DNA of 64,000 nucleotides. Origin: a virus. Where the stretch lies: the IMG/VR virus record IMGVR_UViG_3300025840_000011. The stretch is one strand, 5' to 3'. Positions 1,125-38,347 of the stretch are shown one piece after another. A model generated the notes under the pieces. That model searched no databases, was not told the DNA's origin, and saw only the letters and a program-made list of their open reading frames with translations. Each line of letters begins with the position of its first letter. The first letter of the stretch is position 1. Made by a program: the position numbers and the translations under genes.

Positions 1125-2347
1125 TGGAAGATTTTTTAGGGTTCATCACAGAACAGAAAAATACTCACATGACTCACATTGAGGACAGGGTTCTTTATGG
1201 TGGAGTCAAGGGTACACGTGAGGCCATCTTCGCACTTCGTAACATGCGAGATATGTTGGCGGGGAAGAAAGAAGGTAAGGTATCTGTGAAGTGGGACGGT
1301 GCACCCGCAATCTTTTGTGGCGAAGACCCCAATGACGGAAAGTTTTTTGTTGCGAAGAAAGGTATCTTTGCGAAGAACCCAAAAATCTATAAGACCGATG
1401 CTGAGATTGATGCTGACATGTCTGGTGACCTTGCAACCAAGATGAAGGCCGCCCTTCGGTATCTACCGGATCTGGGTATCACTGGAGTCATACAGGGAGA
1501 CTTCCTATTTGGGCCAGGCGACATAACCACAAAAACTATTGATGGTACAACGTACAAGGTTTTCCATCCAAACACGATTGTCTATGCAGTTCCGGTTGGT
1601 CAAGCCGGTCCTATCATGTCTGCGAAGATTGGTATTGTGTGGCATACAACCTACACGGGGACTTCGTTTGAAAACATGAGAGCGTCCTACGGTGTGGACG
1701 TATCGAAGTTTAAAAAGTCTACCGCAGTTTGGTCTCAGGACGCAATGTTGCGTGATGTAACCAAGGCGACAATGACCGCCGAAGAGACCGAAGAGGTTAA
1801 CGGATACCTAAGTACTGCGGGTTCGATATTCGCCAGTATCTCTGGTACTACCCTTCGACAACTGGAGGCAGATGAAGAACTCGCAAAGTTGATTGAACAG
1901 TACAACAACACTTTTGTTAGGAGGGGTGCAATCATTGGTGATACTACTCGACACACCAATGGACTGATCAAATGGATCAGGGATAAATTTAAGGCGGAGA
2001 TGGCGAAGAGAAGTTCCGCACGTGGTAAGAAGACCCAACAGGATAAGTTAGATGCAATCATGAAGTTCTTCTCTGCAACGAATAAAACTAACCTAATAAA
2101 AATGTTCGAATTGCAAAAAGTCATTGTTTTAGCGAAACTAAAACTTATAAATAAACTTAATAGACTAAAGTCAATTGATACTTTTGTCCAAACTCGAAAG
2201 GGTTATCAAGTAACCGGAGAAGAAGGTTACGTGGCAATTGACCGTCTTGGTGGTGATGCGGTGAAATTGGTTGATCGTATGGAGTTCTCCTACAACAACT
2301 TTTCACCAGATGTTATTAAGGGATGGGATAAACCAACGAGGAATTAA
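1124..2347 (+). CDS. Conserved T4-like protein with nucleic-acid ligase/nucleotidyltransferase motifs (DUF6267-like), probable internal head protein
   Basis: KWDG (motif I), IQGDFLF (III), EEGYV (IV), VKLVDR (V); N-terminus MEDFLGFITE. Confidence 0.65.
   Translation: MEDFLGFITEQKNTHMTHIEDRVLYGGVKGTREAIFALRNMRDMLAGKKEGKVSVKWDGAPAIFCGEDPNDGKFFVAKKGIFAKNPKIYKTDAEIDADMSGDLATKMKAALRYLPDLGITGVIQGDFLFGPGDITTKTIDGTTYKVFHPNTIVYAVPVGQAGPIMSAKIGIVWHTTYTGTSFENMRASYGVDVSKFKKSTAVWSQDAMLRDVTKATMTAEETEEVNGYLSTAGSIFASISGTTLRQLEADEELAKLIEQYNNTFVRRGAIIGDTTRHTNGLIKWIRDKFKAEMAKRSSARGKKTQQDKLDAIMKFFSATNKTNLIKMFELQKVIVLAKLKLINKLNRLKSIDTFVQTRKGYQVTGEEGYVAIDRLGGDAVKLVDRMEFSYNNFSPDVIKGWDKPTRN
2146..2153 (+). promoter_or_regulatory. 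T4-type late promoter (intragenic)
   Basis: TATAAATA about 200 nt upstream of the 2351 ORF. Confidence 0.45.
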
Positions 2348-2350
2348 ACG

Positions 2351-2800
2351 ATGGCGAAGCCATTAGGATTTAAACAATTCGTATCTACAGATACTACTAT
2401 GTCTGGTGATGACGAACTCGCATATCAAGCGAAGAAACGTCGAGGACATATTCCTACAGGGAACACAGGTGAGGCAGTAGATATGCAGACCCGCCGCAAG
2501 ATGGCGCGGGCGATGAAAAAGAATAAGGCGAAAATCGCAATGGGTCGTAAACGTGCGGCCCGCAAGATTGCAAATCAAGAAGTCCTTATGAAACGGGCCC
2601 GCAAGGCGGCACGTAACGCATTCGCAAAGAAAATCACAAAGAACCTTTCTAAGTCTGACTTGACCTATGCACGGCGTCAAGAGATTGAGAAGCGTCTAGA
2701 TAAAATGAAACCAAAGATTGACAAACTTGCGAGAAAACTCCTACCCCAAATGAGGAAGAAGGAACTCGAAAGGAAGCGTGGCGGAAACAAAGATGATTAA
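2351..2800 (+). CDS. Highly basic protein, probable internal head/DNA-binding protein
   Basis: K/R-rich helical sequence; FKQF-type N-terminus. Confidence 0.6.
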   Translation: MAKPLGFKQFVSTDTTMSGDDELAYQAKKRRGHIPTGNTGEAVDMQTRRKMARAMKKNKAKIAMGRKRAARKIANQEVLMKRARKAARNAFAKKITKNLSKSDLTYARRQEIEKRLDKMKPKIDKLARKLLPQMRKKELERKRGGNKDD

Positions 2801-4283
2801 GAATTTCTCACAATATCTGGTCGAAGAGGAACGTGAAGTTTATTTTACCTTTGGTAGAATGAACCCGCCTACTATCGGTCACGGTAAAGTGATGGATACC
2901 CTTGCAACCAAATCAGGCAAGGCAGACTACAAGGTATATCTGTCTCAGGTGTCCAATCCAAAGAAAGACCCCCTCTCATATTCAGACAAAGTTAAACACG
3001 TCCGTAAGATGTTTCCTACACACGCACGTAGTGTTATGATCGACAAGAACGTTAAGAACGTATTCGACGTTGCCTCTAGACTTTACGATCAGGGATACAA
3101 GAAGGTTACGATGGTTGTCGGTGATGACCGTGTGCGTGAGTTCGAAGTACTCCTGAACAAGTACAATGGTACGAAGGCGCGTCACGGGTTCTACAACTTC
3201 CAGTCAATCAGAGTTGTGTCTGCGGGTAAACGCGATCCGGATGCGGAAGGTGTGGAAGGTATGTCCGCATCGAAACAGCGTGAGAACGCATCCAAGAACG
3301 ATTTCGTTACCTTCGCACAAGGCGTACCCAAGTCCATGTCTAACAAGGACGCACGTAAACTATTCAATGACGTGCGTAAGGGTATGGGTCTCAAAGAAGA
3401 GCGTTCGTTCAAGAACCATGTTGAACTCGTTCCTGTTTCCGAAACAAGAGAACAGTATGTTCAGGGAGAACTATATGGTATCGGCGATCAAGTCGTTATC
3501 AAAGAAACTGATGAAGTGGGTACAGTCTCAATGCTCGGGGCCAATTATGTTATCGTCGAACGCACAGATGGCACTCGACTACGCAAATGGTTGGATGCAG
3601 TCGAACTCGTCGAAAAAGGATCAGGAAAGAATCAAGACCCTGACATTAAAGACAGAGAGGGAACCCAACCCGCAAGGTATCACGCAGGACTAGAAAAGTC
3701 CACCAAGGCGAAAAGAGACGCACACTTCAAGAAACACGGTAAGAAAGACGATGATGATGCTTCTGCCTACAAACCCGCGCCTGGCGATAAGACCGCCAAG
3801 ACTAAACCTTCTAAGTACACCAAGGCGTTCAAGGACATGTACGATGAAGATTCTTGGGACAGGTACAAAAAGGATCTGGATGAGATGCCACGTTGGATGA
3901 TAGACGCTATTGGTGATAAGGTTAATCCAAAAACTTACAAGGCCGCTCTAGATACTCTCAAAGACGTTGTGACTCGTAAGAAGAAAGAGTCTGGTGGTAA
4001 ACTCAGACATGACGTTGGGTATTATGCCGCCACTATTGGAAGACAATACAATGGTGTTGATGCGAGAGTGTTGGCGCGCCTCTACAAGAAATCTGTTACC
4101 GAAGTCGCCGCACCTCGTGGGTCAGATCCAGTAGTTATTGCGAAGGCGAGGATCCGTAGAGAGAAGGATGCAGATCGTAAGAAACACGATAGACTTCTCG
4201 ACACCGCAAGGTCCGCAAAAGCCCGTGCATCTAATGCAAACCGTAGTGCAAGAACACAGTCTAAGAACAGGAACACACAATGA
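2793..4283 (+). CDS. HxGH cytidylyltransferase-like protein with appended C-terminal modules
   Basis: FGRMNPPTIGH, VVGDDRV, SAGKRD, MSASK; ATG at 2793 gives MIKNFSQYLVEEE. Confidence 0.8.
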   Translation: MIKNFSQYLVEEEREVYFTFGRMNPPTIGHGKVMDTLATKSGKADYKVYLSQVSNPKKDPLSYSDKVKHVRKMFPTHARSVMIDKNVKNVFDVASRLYDQGYKKVTMVVGDDRVREFEVLLNKYNGTKARHGFYNFQSIRVVSAGKRDPDAEGVEGMSASKQRENASKNDFVTFAQGVPKSMSNKDARKLFNDVRKGMGLKEERSFKNHVELVPVSETREQYVQGELYGIGDQVVIKETDEVGTVSMLGANYVIVERTDGTRLRKWLDAVELVEKGSGKNQDPDIKDREGTQPARYHAGLEKSTKAKRDAHFKKHGKKDDDDASAYKPAPGDKTAKTKPSKYTKAFKDMYDEDSWDRYKKDLDEMPRWMIDAIGDKVNPKTYKAALDTLKDVVTRKKKESGGKLRHDVGYYAATIGRQYNGVDARVLARLYKKSVTEVAAPRGSDPVVIAKARIRREKDADRKKHDRLLDTARSAKARASNANRSARTQSKNRNTQ

Positions 4284-4528
4284 GACGTTACTCTCTTTGG
4301 GATAGTTTAGGTAGTTTGGAAGAAGGTCCGGATGGTATCGCCGCGAAGGCGAAGAAGTCTGGTATCTCTCCTAAAACACTTAAGAAAGTTTATAATCGTG
4401 GGGTTGCCGCATGGAAGACCGGACACCGGCCTGGGACAACACCGCAACAGTGGGGGATGGCGCGAGTGAATGCGTTCATCGTTAAAAAGAAAAAGGGCAC
4501 ATTAAATCACGATAAGGATCTCGCATGA
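4280..4528 (+). CDS. Small conserved viral protein (DUF5824-like)
   Basis: KKVYNRGVAAWKTGHRPGTTPQQWGMARVN motif. Confidence 0.65.
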   Translation: MRRYSLWDSLGSLEEGPDGIAAKAKKSGISPKTLKKVYNRGVAAWKTGHRPGTTPQQWGMARVNAFIVKKKKGTLNHDKDLA

Positions 4529-6174
4529 TTAATTTTAAAGAGTTGCGGGAGAAGACTCTGACCCCCGCAGAGAAAAAGAAAAGAGAAGAGATTGCGAAGG
4601 CAATTGAGAAAGACGATCCTAAGATGTCGATGGACAAGAAGATGGCCATCGCTACTGCGACTGCGAAAAGAGTTGCAGAGGGTTTCACTCCTAAAGAAAT
4701 CAAGATGGCAATCGGTGTTGCATCTGATAAACGATATGCGGGTGGTAACTACTCTGGTGCGGTCAAGGCAATCGAAAAGATCAAGAAGGGTCTATCTAAA
4801 CATAGTCAAGTAGCGGCAGTTCTCCGAAGACAGAATGAGTCAACAGAACTTGTTTCTGAAGCGGTAGACTACTTCAAGGTCGCAAAGGCATTCGATGACT
4901 ATGCAAAGAAGCATGGTGGTATCGACAAGAAGGACTTCATGAAGGTCGGTCAGTTTGTACGTCAACTTGGTAAAGAGTCGGACGTGAACAAACAGGACAA
5001 AACGTTCGTAGCGATGAAGAAGTTTATTGGTGCAATGGACACTGACCCCCGTGATGGCGTAATCCAAATCTTGCAGAAGCATGGTATGTGGAAGGGTGGT
5101 CGGATCATGCGTGAAGAAAAGGAAGGTATTTCTTTCTTTTCGTTGAGAGAAAAGAGAGATGCTGGTAAGTCTGCGACTGGGTATGACATTTATCACGATA
5201 CGTATTCTGCGGCAATGCAACATGCATATGCACACGCCAAGAAGAAACATGGTGTGACCGTTCGTCCTAGTGAGATCGACGATAAGGTCGCAACCGGACC
5301 TAAGAAACCGTCCACTGGTAAGACCGTAAAACATATTCTCAAAACAGACTCTAAGAAAAACCTTCACGTTCAGGTGTACAACACTGGTCGTAAGTACGAG
5401 TTGAATATGTACGTTGAGTCAGTAGAACTCAACGAGGCGGTTGCGATGCCTCGCAAACAGTTTGATACTCTGAGGAAGGGTGACAAGGTTACTATCACTT
5501 ATGACTCATCGATCCGTAAGGGTACAACTACAACCTTCGTTGTGAAGGGTAAGTCACGTAGTGCCAAGTACAACGTAGATAAGGTCACCATGCACCCCGA
5601 AGGTAAACCATCCGGAATGAAGTATTACCTCTACAGTAGAGATGGTAAGGACGCAACACTTGCACTGGGTGACATGGGTGCAACCATGACTAAGATTGTC
5701 AAGGAGGCGGTATCACCCGCACAACAGGCAGCGATTGCAATCTCTAAGAAAGAGAAGGGTGAGAAACCCGTGAAAGAAGAGAAGGTCGAATGTCCTAAGT
5801 GTAAGGGTGATGGTTGTTCTCATTGTGATAACAAGGGTTATCACGTCGAGAGTGCACGTTCTATGGCGATGCGAGATATCTCTAGAGACAAAGACTTCCA
5901 AGACAAAGATGATGAGAAGGATGTCAAGGCAACCGATGATGACCGCAAGGCCGCAGACAAGAATATCATCATGCAGATCCGTAGAGTCTCAGATCTACCA
6001 AAGGGTGGGACTCTAGAATTCAAGGACGGTAAGAAGGTGAAGATTAGTCAGAAAATTGCAAAACAAATCTCTGACAAGTTCAACAGTATACGCAAACCGC
6101 AGGACAAGAAGAAGTTCCAAGACATGGCGCAGACTTCCATGAACGGACTCAAACAGGCACTAAGGATCCGATAA
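4525..6174 (+). CDS. Modular basic protein, putative protease-processed internal polyprotein
   Basis: MINFKELRE N-terminus; unrelated modules separated by (L/V/I/M)xE(E) linkers; CxxCxGxGCxxC finger. Confidence 0.6.
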   Translation: MINFKELREKTLTPAEKKKREEIAKAIEKDDPKMSMDKKMAIATATAKRVAEGFTPKEIKMAIGVASDKRYAGGNYSGAVKAIEKIKKGLSKHSQVAAVLRRQNESTELVSEAVDYFKVAKAFDDYAKKHGGIDKKDFMKVGQFVRQLGKESDVNKQDKTFVAMKKFIGAMDTDPRDGVIQILQKHGMWKGGRIMREEKEGISFFSLREKRDAGKSATGYDIYHDTYSAAMQHAYAHAKKKHGVTVRPSEIDDKVATGPKKPSTGKTVKHILKTDSKKNLHVQVYNTGRKYELNMYVESVELNEAVAMPRKQFDTLRKGDKVTITYDSSIRKGTTTTFVVKGKSRSAKYNVDKVTMHPEGKPSGMKYYLYSRDGKDATLALGDMGATMTKIVKEAVSPAQQAAIAISKKEKGEKPVKEEKVECPKCKGDGCSHCDNKGYHVESARSMAMRDISRDKDFQDKDDEKDVKATDDDRKAADKNIIMQIRRVSDLPKGGTLEFKDGKKVKISQKIAKQISDKFNSIRKPQDKKKFQDMAQTSMNGLKQALRIR

Positions 6175-6374
6175 TGAACACCATCGATCAGATCAAAGAC
6201 ATCGTAAAGACCAAAGGCGCCAAGAAGGTAGATGGAGTCATGATTGATCTATTTACCGCATCTGCAATTTCTCAGATTTATGACAAGGTGAACGATGCCA
6301 ATAAACAAAAGATGCAGAAGATGAAGGCGACTCAACTCGCCAACGCTGCATACAAGATTATGCAGAGAAAGTAA
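6174..6374 (+). CDS. Small conserved protein, prohead-core-like
   Basis: DGVMIDLFTASAISQIYDKVNDANKQKM; coupled start/stop overlaps on both sides. Confidence 0.5.
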   Translation: MNTIDQIKDIVKTKGAKKVDGVMIDLFTASAISQIYDKVNDANKQKMQKMKATQLANAAYKIMQRK

Positions 6375-6892
6375 TGAAGACATTCAACGAACATTGCGAG
6401 TGTGGTTCTCACTCCGATCTTGTAGAGAACAATATATACAGAGTTGGTTCTGAGATGTACTTCGCATACTGGAGAGACATCCGCGAACAGTGGAAGAAGG
6501 GCGAGGTCACAGTCAACCCATCTGAGGTGGACATTATGGAATCTGACCTTGGTAATTTTGGAGTGTATGATGGCCAGAACGTTGCGTTGGACTGTATCTT
6601 CGAAGAGGGGGATAAGAAGACCCCCGAACTTAACAAACCAAAGGCGGGGGGCCCGAAGAAGTACTACGTCTACGTTAAAGACCCTTCGACGGGAAATATC
6701 AAGAAGGTATCTTGGGGTGACACTACAGGACTCAAGGTCAAGTTGAATGACCCCGCTGCACGTAAATCATTCGCTGCGCGACACAAGTGTGCACAACAAA
6801 ACGATAAGACGAAGGCCGCCTACTGGGCATGTCGCCTTCCCCGTTATGCAAAACAATTGGGGTTGAGTGGTGGCGGATCGTTCTTCTGGTAA
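6374..6892 (+). CDS. Conserved viral protein (DUF6321-like), probable internal head protein
   Basis: MKTFNEHCE N-terminus; KVSWGD...RKSFAARHKC...AYWAC motif. Confidence 0.65.
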   Translation: MKTFNEHCECGSHSDLVENNIYRVGSEMYFAYWRDIREQWKKGEVTVNPSEVDIMESDLGNFGVYDGQNVALDCIFEEGDKKTPELNKPKAGGPKKYYVYVKDPSTGNIKKVSWGDTTGLKVKLNDPAARKSFAARHKCAQQNDKTKAAYWACRLPRYAKQLGLSGGGSFFW

Positions 6893-9651: not shown

Positions 9652-9681
9652 TTGACAGATCCCTCTCCCCTTTGATATAAT
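9652..9681 (+). promoter_or_regulatory. sigma70-type promoter upstream of nrd operon
   Basis: TTGACA-18nt-TATAAT with TGn extended -10. Confidence 0.7.
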
Positions 9682-37298: not shown

Positions 37299-37442
37299 AT
37301 GGAAACTCTTAACAAAGCCTTCAACTGGACTTGGGACTATGTAAAAGGTACTGTCGCTGACTTCAGAGAAGTTGTGACCAATTACCCGAATGTCCTAATT
37401 TGGACTGGTGTAATTGTTCTGTTAGTAACTTGGATTGTATAA
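37299..37442 (+). CDS. 47-aa membrane protein (not in ORF track)
   Basis: GAGG SD; C-terminal VLIWTGVIVLLVTWIV. Confidence 0.5.
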   Translation: METLNKAFNWTWDYVKGTVADFREVVTNYPNVLIWTGVIVLLVTWIV

Positions 37443-37474: not shown

Positions 37475-38347
37475 ATGCAGAAATTCAAAGCACATATGGA
37501 TGAGACAACTTTTCTTTTCGAGGAGGCGGAATCGCTCCTTGAAAAGTTGATCACTTTTGGTGGAGAAGCGTATCCTCGTTTTGGAAACATTGTCTTCATG
37601 GCGGGGGGAGCGGGTTCCGGTAAAGGATTCGTTCTCTCTAACCTCGTAGGTATCGAAGGGAAGACTCTGGATGTCGATGAACTTAAAACTCTCGCGTCCA
37701 GAGCCCCTAGCATTCGTGCAAGAGTTCAGAAAGAACTTGGTGTTGATCTTGCTGACCTTGCAGCGAACCTAAAGAATCCTGAGAACGTATCGAAACTTCA
37801 CGATATCATGGGTGACTATTTGGATCTGGACAACCGGAAACAGAAGGCACTCTTTCGTGGAGTTTTGTTACAACCCAAAGACAAGAAACCCAACATCATC
37901 TTTGATACCACACTCAAAGACCTACCCAAACTGGAAAGACTCACCCGTCAGGCCGCAAGTCTTGGATACGATAAGGAGAACATCCATATCGTCTGGGTTG
38001 TCAACGACATCGAAGTTGCAAAATCTCAAAACCAGGCACGTTCACGTCGAGTCCCATCTGAGATCCTAGTCAACACTCACCGTGGTGCCGCCAATACAAT
38101 GGGTGACATCATCAACATGGGTAAAAAGTTGAAGAGGTACATGGACGGAGATATCGTCTTTGCGTTCAACAAGGTTGGGGTGGATGCGAACCTCGCAAAG
38201 TCTGGAAGGGGTGGATCCTACGTCAAGGACGCAAATTACTTCTACGTCAAGAAGAAGGGTCAACCACCCACGTCAGTTGCGGATCTGGATAAAGAGATTC
38301 GTCGTAAGATTAAAGACTACGTACCCGCAGGCGTAGACTGGAATTAA
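37475..38347 (+). CDS. P-loop kinase (zeta-toxin/AAA_33-like), probable internal head protein
   Basis: MAGGAGSGKG, DVDE, IIFDTT, NQARSRRVP; MQKFKAHMDE...LLE leader. Confidence 0.7.
   Translation: MQKFKAHMDETTFLFEEAESLLEKLITFGGEAYPRFGNIVFMAGGAGSGKGFVLSNLVGIEGKTLDVDELKTLASRAPSIRARVQKELGVDLADLAANLKNPENVSKLHDIMGDYLDLDNRKQKALFRGVLLQPKDKKPNIIFDTTLKDLPKLERLTRQAASLGYDKENIHIVWVVNDIEVAKSQNQARSRRVPSEILVNTHRGAANTMGDIINMGKKLKRYMDGDIVFAFNKVGVDANLAKSGRGGSYVKDANYFYVKKKGQPPTSVADLDKEIRRKIKDYVPAGVDWN

Follow-up and report, generated by a model that had tools for sequence, protein, structure and literature searches.

The 64,000-nucleotide stretch analysed here (IMG/VR virus record IMGVR_UViG_3300025840_000011, hereafter the window) belongs to a T4-like myophage from the sea. 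The named records nearest to it, Methylophilales phage Melnitz and phage C48C1, are placed under Kyanoviridae. Its open reading frame (ORF) at 4525-6174 encodes a protein of 549 amino acids (aa) built as a mosaic: a short leader is followed by eight small modules, A to H, with glutamate-bearing linkers between them. The start of this ORF overlaps the stop of ORF 4280, and ORF 6174 begins at its last base, an arrangement of translational coupling. The layout is as follows, a slash marking the junction after a boundary glutamate.

4525-6174, plus strand: the mosaic ORF, 549 aa, 61.6 kDa, isoelectric point (pI) 9.7, 16% Lys.
4525-4551, plus strand: N-terminal leader MINFKELRE, similar to the T4 capsid-targeting sequence (CTS), with an aromatic residue at position 4, Leu at P3 and Glu at P1.
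4552-4680, plus strand: module A, aa 10-52, two helices, pI 9.6, C-terminal end KRVAE/G.
4681-4836, plus strand: module B, aa 53-104, three helices, pI 10.4, with 163 matches among 252 relatives, at any position.
4837-4860, plus strand: acidic linker ESTELVSE, pI 4.1; predicted local distance difference test (pLDDT) below 50 at aa 108-111.
4861-5115, plus strand: module C, aa 113-197, a four-helix domain, pI 9.7.
5116-5151, plus strand: linker and apparent relic of an internal leader, EKEGISFFSLRE; pLDDT below 50 at aa 198-211.
5152-5418, plus strand: module D, aa 210-298, alpha+beta, the hallmark of the family.
5419-5436, plus strand: linker SVELNE, canonical (family consensus ESVELDE/A); pLDDT below 50 at aa 300-304.
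5437-5706, plus strand: module E, aa 305-394, a small beta-barrel, pI 9.9, C-terminal end IVKE/A.
5707-5778, plus strand: module F, aa 395-418, one helix, AVSPAQQAAIAISKKEKGE.
5779-5850, plus strand: module G, aa 419-442, CxxC...CxxC, zinc-ribbon-like, with low model confidence.
5851-6171, plus strand: module H, aa 443-549, alpha/beta, pI 9.9, mostly C-terminal in family proteins.

The first-pass annotation of this DNA had described about eight unrelated blocks bounded by Glu linkers. The ORF is as it described, every boundary string that it quoted is found in the 549-aa translation, and the eight blocks, compared with each other, show no significant similarity between any two of them; the observation is confirmed, and is stronger than originally stated. 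The modules have masses of 2.5-12 kDa and seven of the eight are basic (pI 9.4-10.4; G has a pI of 6.1), the linkers having a pI of 4-5.

The same modules are shuffled across a large family. A word-indexed search returned about 3,000 relatives of 300-960 aa, each spanning just 15-72% of the query, and an exhaustive HMMER scan gave 3,522 clusters at 50% identity. Family proteins mapped back onto the query (first 120, then 252) have a permuted module order: D-B-E-C-...-H, E-C, E-D-C, B-E-D, H-D-B-H and others. Alignment breakpoints group at aa 47-52, 106-112, 197-219, 296-311, 392-402, 418-424 and 438-443, and these clusters are the block borders that the first reading had drawn from the letters; its suggestion that the blocks occur shuffled in other phage proteins with x-x-E borders is borne out by the database search. 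Phage Melnitz has the same modules spread over two genes, in a different order. At finer scale, one relative (P0024) is identical to the query at 131 of 132 positions across aa 284-415 and carries a different cassette straight after GEKP, and another (P0001) departs from the query straight after KRVAE.

We modelled the whole protein with AlphaFold2 from an alignment of colinear relatives. The mean pLDDT is 81.8 and the predicted template modelling score (pTM) is 0.31, a combination that suggests confident domains whose mutual arrangement is not fixed. Values of pLDDT under 50 are confined to linkers and the zinc-ribbon-like block (aa 108-111, 198-211, 300-304 and 413-442); the prediction thus returns separate confident domains, with confidence lost between them, in line with the independent domains proposed earlier. 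The low pTM and the shuffled relatives together speak against full-length colinear homologs folding as a single unit. Module D modelled alone reaches a pTM of 0.76, and 25 of its residues are invariant over 42 loci.

No family or fold can be assigned to modules A-H from any search. Pfam gives no family for the whole protein at E <=0.01, and six parts of it have no meaningful match at E <=10; the sole PHROG match is a family of unknown function. Sequence searches of the PDB with the protein and with a module-D profile gave no match, and neither did Foldseek against the PDB with the whole model at E <=0.001. A wide VIA-align search with module D reached a top Z of 4.4, to PAS- or cystatin-like arrangements, below the useful level, and the ESM Atlas returned unnamed viral clusters only. 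In BFVD, the module D model (window 5140-5427) is matched best by a protein of 1,134 aa from an uncultured phage, which bears the label anti-CBASS Acb1 (probability 0.96, E 0.08, 18% identity across 81 columns); the match is too weak to use and we keep it as a lead only. The matched protein may be another long mosaic with a D-like module.

Recognisable domains do occur elsewhere in the family. Among 66 family members, Pfam finds some with DUF3008, DUF5824, DUF7230 or DUF5872 and, rarely, Zeta_toxin/AAA_33, EF-hand, DnaJ_CXXCXGXG and HNH_3; the Zeta_toxin/AAA_33 kinase domain is carried by one mosaic member. DUF3008 (PF11450), present in 5 of the 66 relatives, has no match in the query, aa 395-442 included, even at E <=10. 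Some family members are headed by a cytidylyltransferase. Two IMG/VR contigs of 146,609 and 39,816 bases (L078, L079) encode such proteins of 1,274-1,366 aa (MKKLVFTFGRMNPPTIGH), in which many modules follow the cytidylyltransferase and module D lies at residue 511, so that an enzyme and small modules share one polypeptide.

The joints follow a grammar of their own. Their consensus is K-E-[E/S]-V-E-L-D-E/A regardless of the flanking modules, with variants ESIEE, EVRE/G, KVAE/G and IVKE/A. All eight [LIVM]-x-E sites of the query lie within junction zones, which were set independently, from the homolog breakpoints, and which occupy 19% of the sequence and account for 19 of the 32 Glu. The relaxed pattern [LIVM]-x-E-[AGS] is mildly enriched in the ORF (4 observed vs 1.35 expected, P ~0.04). 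Module cores contain 13 Glu vs 40 Asp, the ratio in the rest of the window being ~1:1 (Fisher P 1.3e-4). Across 124 non-redundant family proteins, 11.7% of all Glu stand in [LIVM]-x-E-[AGS]; the same [LIVM]-x-[AGS]-flanked context holds 3.1% of family Asp, and ~5% of Glu or Asp in other window ORFs.

Position by position, P1 is Glu in 64 of 84 distinct contexts before module B, 31 of 34 before C and 34 of 36 before F, and is never Asp; Asp is the commonest residue at P2 before the same three modules. P3 is Leu, Val, Ile or Met in 65 of 84 contexts for module B and 31 of 34 for module C, and P1' is typically Ala, Gly or Ser at family joints. After module D, NMY-x-E stands in 161 of the 170 distinct contexts with at least 20 residues following and in none of the 44 where D is terminal; the glutamate is therefore part of the joint, not of the domain. 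In T4, gp21 recognises L/I-x-E and cleaves behind it; gp22 is cleaved between Glu and Ala (PMC9026906). As judged from residue preferences, the linker grammar (Glu and not Asp at P1; Leu, Val or Ile at P3; Ala, Gly or Ser at P1') fits a Glu-specific prohead protease of the T4 type.

The N-termini point in the same direction. In T4, the first 10 residues of IPIII are enough for capsid targeting, residues 4 and 7 serving to target and 8 and 10 to process, and Asp at position 10 blocks cutting (PMC9026906). The query starts with MINFKELRE/K (Phe 4, Leu 7, Glu 9), in which L-x-E is present, and other family members start with MKSFKQIRE/A, MKTLKQLRE/K, MINFKQLRE/K or MTRY...SEVRE/G. A CTS-like start is found in 48% of non-redundant family N-termini vs 8% of control ORFs (P 6e-9). 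The first-pass annotation had also noticed an internal second leader, and it holds up: GISFFSLRE/K stands before module D, and many homologs have D at the N-terminus, behind MKSFKQIRE/A or MINFKQLRE/K. By this comparison, the internal copy reads as an N-terminal leader kept after gene fusion.

A suitable protease is encoded by relatives. Melnitz encodes a protease of the Peptidase_S77 family; in the Melnitz gp23 a maturation site, FLSE/AAP, is predicted right before the conserved mature N-terminal region, and the Melnitz scaffold contains AELEE/A, TESLEE/G and TVAE/S. Of the module-D contigs with a completeness of 74% or more, all (5 of 5) encode S77, as do 6 of 21 smaller ones, which is roughly the share expected from completeness, these being 25-56% complete fragments of similar-sized genomes.

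Around the mosaic gene, the following features of the window bear on its organisation and expression.

2146-2153, plus strand: the nearest upstream T4-type late-promoter word, TATAAATA, within ORF 1124; it heads the coupled gene run that includes 4525.
2793-4283, plus strand: cytidylyltransferase-like ORF with the leader MIKNFSQYLVE and a modular tail.
4280-4528, plus strand: 82-aa DUF5824 ORF, an internal module of 7 family proteins and part of Melnitz gp18.
6174-6374, plus strand: 66-aa stand-alone ORF, an internal module in 36 of 252 family proteins.

ORFs 4280 and 6174, parts of 6374 and 7493 and part of the tail of ORF 2793 are internal modules of family proteins elsewhere, which also bears out the earlier remark that the tail of 2793-4283 is of a similar kind. 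Melnitz gp18 (650 aa; L001 3232-5184) combines homologs of window ORFs 2793, 4280 and 6374 in one protein, made up of a cytidylyltransferase, DUF5824 and, at the C-terminus, a GGGxFFW domain. The window has these as separate ORFs, and between the DUF5824 ORF 4280 and the GGGxFFW ORF 6374-6892 lie the mosaic gene and ORF 6174. The stand-alone module ORFs and the gp18 fusion imply a fluid boundary between gene and module. A frameshift merging the 549-aa ORF with ORF 6174 was considered and rejected: the upstream extension of that frame has no real homology.

Other proteins carry related features. ORF 1124-2347 matches DUF6267 (E 4.6e-103) and has a ligase-like KxDG motif (VKWDG); its N-terminus, MEDFLGFITE, has the exact T4 CTS spacing (Phe 4, Phe 7, Ile 8, Glu 10), and its 0.49 [LIV]-x-E sites per 100 aa are among the window's lowest. 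ORF 37475-38347 starts with MQKFKAHMDE, directly behind TATAAATA at 37438. In further loci (L086-L116, for example L101 and L092) we see a conserved class of 185-216-aa proteins that start with MKRWxEVSPYSG[IL]EE/DAP, continue with ~100 uncharacterised residues and have module D last; the junction into D has no Glu (..NA/AKSATGY..), and neither does the C-terminal end, NMYI[TSDQ]. We had considered stand-alone, leaderless module D proteins as a counter-argument to targeting and rejected them, since the DNA shows ORFs of this 185-216-aa length that had been called from an internal Met.

As to expression, TATAAATA occurs 12 times in the window vs 1.8 expected, and the genes from 2351 to 6892 have start-to-stop overlaps throughout. 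No strong sigma-70-type promoter was found inside the gene cluster. A perfect one lies at 9652-9681, just before ORF 9703 (TTGACA, 18 nt, TG-extended TATAAT; 12/12 matches), and opens the next transcription unit, ribonucleotide reductase genes included. In Melnitz, TATAAATA stands 40 nt ahead of the first leader-bearing gene of the cluster. This promoter layout is weakly consistent with late transcription.

The explanation we favour, and to which we give about an even chance of being right, is that of a head-cargo polyprotein: a CTS-like leader followed by eight independently folding modules whose linkers are cut by the S77 prohead protease. The protein would be made late in infection, and its leader of ~9 residues would load it into the prohead core. 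There the head protease would cut at the linkers, giving separate small basic internal proteins, while the acidic linker peptides would be lost; when the phage next infects, the released pieces would exit together with the DNA. The linkers would also serve as joints at the DNA level, where related phages swap, fuse and split modules. The first-pass annotation had proposed a payload of mini-effectors of this kind, and its interpretation gains partial support. Mosaic architecture, shuffling, site grammar and protease context, the last as co-occurrence in relatives, are observed and support it, as does the independent folding seen in the models; packaging and cleavage are what we infer.

Several points weigh against this explanation. 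In length, the leader falls short of the T4 CTS by one residue. Strict [LI]-x-E sites are at chance in the ORF (3 observed vs 2.97 expected), so that the raw count is not the signal and position is; several joints have Val, Met or Tyr at P3, or no hydrophobic P3 (YHVE/S); and the family statistics rest on related, non-independent sequences. The codon usage of the linkers, given below, indicates that part of their conservation lies at the DNA level. No late promoter stands directly before 4525, the nearest being 2.4 kb upstream and inside another ORF, and the gene sits among nucleotide-metabolism genes. The cytidylyltransferase and the ligase-like DUF6267 protein share the same leaders and linkers, and would be unusual cargo. 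ORF 6174 has no leader and no x-x-E site, so that a targeting signal is lacking in at least one of the modules produced. Head genes are absent from the 64,000-nt window, and the phage's own protease is thus not seen there. The proposed steps of late expression, packaging, cleavage and ejection, like any function that the modules may have, are inferred; a literature search found no proteome of Melnitz or of pelagimyophages.

Alternatively, the protein might stay uncleaved, its linked modules acting like beads on a string inside infected cells, for instance as adaptors that bind nucleic acids or proteins; the linkers, for all their acidity, would then be mere spacers, and the conserved N-terminus would have another purpose. 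Modules are indeed fused to enzymes of cytoplasmic type: cytidylyltransferase, a Zeta/AAA_33 kinase and a PHROG family whose annotation reads ribonucleotide reductase alpha subunit. The gene's neighbours serve nucleotide metabolism and are not head genes, and the leaderless ORF 6174 fits as well. Yet a spacer would tolerate Asp like Glu, and P1 is never Asp; the hydrophobic P3 and the small P1' are conserved, Glu is gone when D is terminal and is avoided inside the cores, and the free permutation of order speaks against modules that cooperate in a fixed arrangement. On balance, we consider an uncleaved protein unlikely. Cleavage might also take place in the cytoplasm, by another Glu-specific protease of phage or host that releases small early proteins with no link to the capsid. 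The grammar shows Glu-specific recognition only, not the location of cutting, and is compatible with this; however, searches of the family and of neighbouring genes turned up no protease domain, in relatives we see no Glu-specific protease other than the S77 prohead protease, and the N-terminus resembles the T4 capsid-targeting leader. We regard cytoplasmic cleavage as very improbable.

A further possibility is that the linkers are mainly DNA recombination joints for in-frame cassette exchange, their resemblance to protease sites being incidental. Near-identical proteins switch cassette exactly at joints, and the codons of the linkers are far off background (Leu CTT 41/52 vs 0.24; Ile ATT 23/26; Val GTT 42/60), with P values that are inflated because the counts are drawn from related sequences. 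The linkers thus look homologous as DNA, a point overlooked in the first-pass annotation, and with the swaps at the joints this makes it most likely that the joints are also recombination points; we conclude that they probably double as such. As the sole explanation, recombination accounts for less. A search for exact repeats found no DNA repeated among the linkers of the 549-aa ORF. The 78 distinct linkers taken from 80 loci are encoded by 70 different DNA sequences, in which the codons for Glu, Ser, Val and Asp vary synonymously, so that conservation of the peptide goes beyond that of the DNA; and the leader, the Glu-not-Asp rule and the avoidance of Glu in cores are left unexplained. An incidental resemblance to protease sites is, in our view, quite unlikely, and the role of the joints in recombination is compatible with the head-cargo polyprotein, not exclusive of it.

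The head-cargo polyprotein has partial parallels in known systems. T4 IPI, IPII, IPIII and Alt likewise have a short N-terminal leader in which position 4 is aromatic and an L/I-x-E site is present, are small basic proteins, as the putative products here would be, and form a hypervariable payload, a predicted one here, behind a conserved leader in a T4-like phage with an S77 prohead protease (here, in relatives). The T4 internal proteins are basic, of ~8-20 kDa, with ~300 copies each (PMC9026906, PMC3012670). T4 has one protein per leader, whereas up to eight modules follow one leader here; the linkers here have their own conserved acidic consensus, and the leader is shorter by one residue. 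No homology to IPI, IPII, IPIII or Alt was found by Pfam, with the whole protein and six parts, or in PHROGs. T4 gp22, gp67 and gp68 and the inner-body proteins of phiKZ and SPN3US also have several x-x-E sites in one polypeptide, cleavage here being only predicted. Prohead core and inner-body proteins receive multiple x-x-E cuts inside the prohead, and acidic fragments are expelled (PMC9026906); unlike the mosaic protein, they are scaffolds or propeptides with redundant sites, not independently folded, permuted domains.

Polyvalent proteins (Iyer et al. 2017, PMC5512222) similarly combine many unrelated domains, in very variable order, in a single polypeptide, and the description of 2-15 unrelated domains in variable architecture covers the present case, with eight modules permuted in relatives. 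They are proposed to accompany the DNA and to be processed into units by their own MPTase peptidase domain (PMC5512222). In contrast to their large, recognisable enzymatic or anti-restriction domains, the modules here have 25-110 aa, no known family and no peptidase domain, and processing would putatively be carried out by the head protease at a dedicated linker. The query and 66 family members were searched, and none of the polyvalent hallmark domains (MPTase peptidase, ArdC, DarB-type methylase/helicase, ParB etc.) came up.

Literature searches found no published account of this family or of its linker. Even if the linkers are not cleaved, the family is among the clearest examples of domains that permute freely and share a dedicated joint. 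If cutting does occur in the prohead, these phages would package small basic proteins as a shuffled set whose diversity far exceeds that of T4 with its three internal proteins, with a built-in route to new cargo through cassette swaps at the cut sites. More broadly, and more tentatively, the pelagimyophage/Melnitz group of abundant marine T4-like phages may run a combinatorial cargo system, in which one linker is both head-protease site and in-frame recombination joint; we hold this to be possible, somewhat short of an even chance. Any small domain, even an enzyme (ligase-like, nucleotidyltransferase, kinase), could then be plugged in behind the leader, packed, freed and injected, and the cassette mechanism would allow fast evolution of the injected protein set. 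The phages concerned include relatives of OM43-infecting and probably SAR11-infecting phages, whose hosts number among the sea's most abundant bacteria. If true, the reading would provide nature's own rule for designing foreign proteins that load into T4-like capsids, a context for thousands of 'hypothetical' domains and a handle on what marine phages deliver before gene expression.

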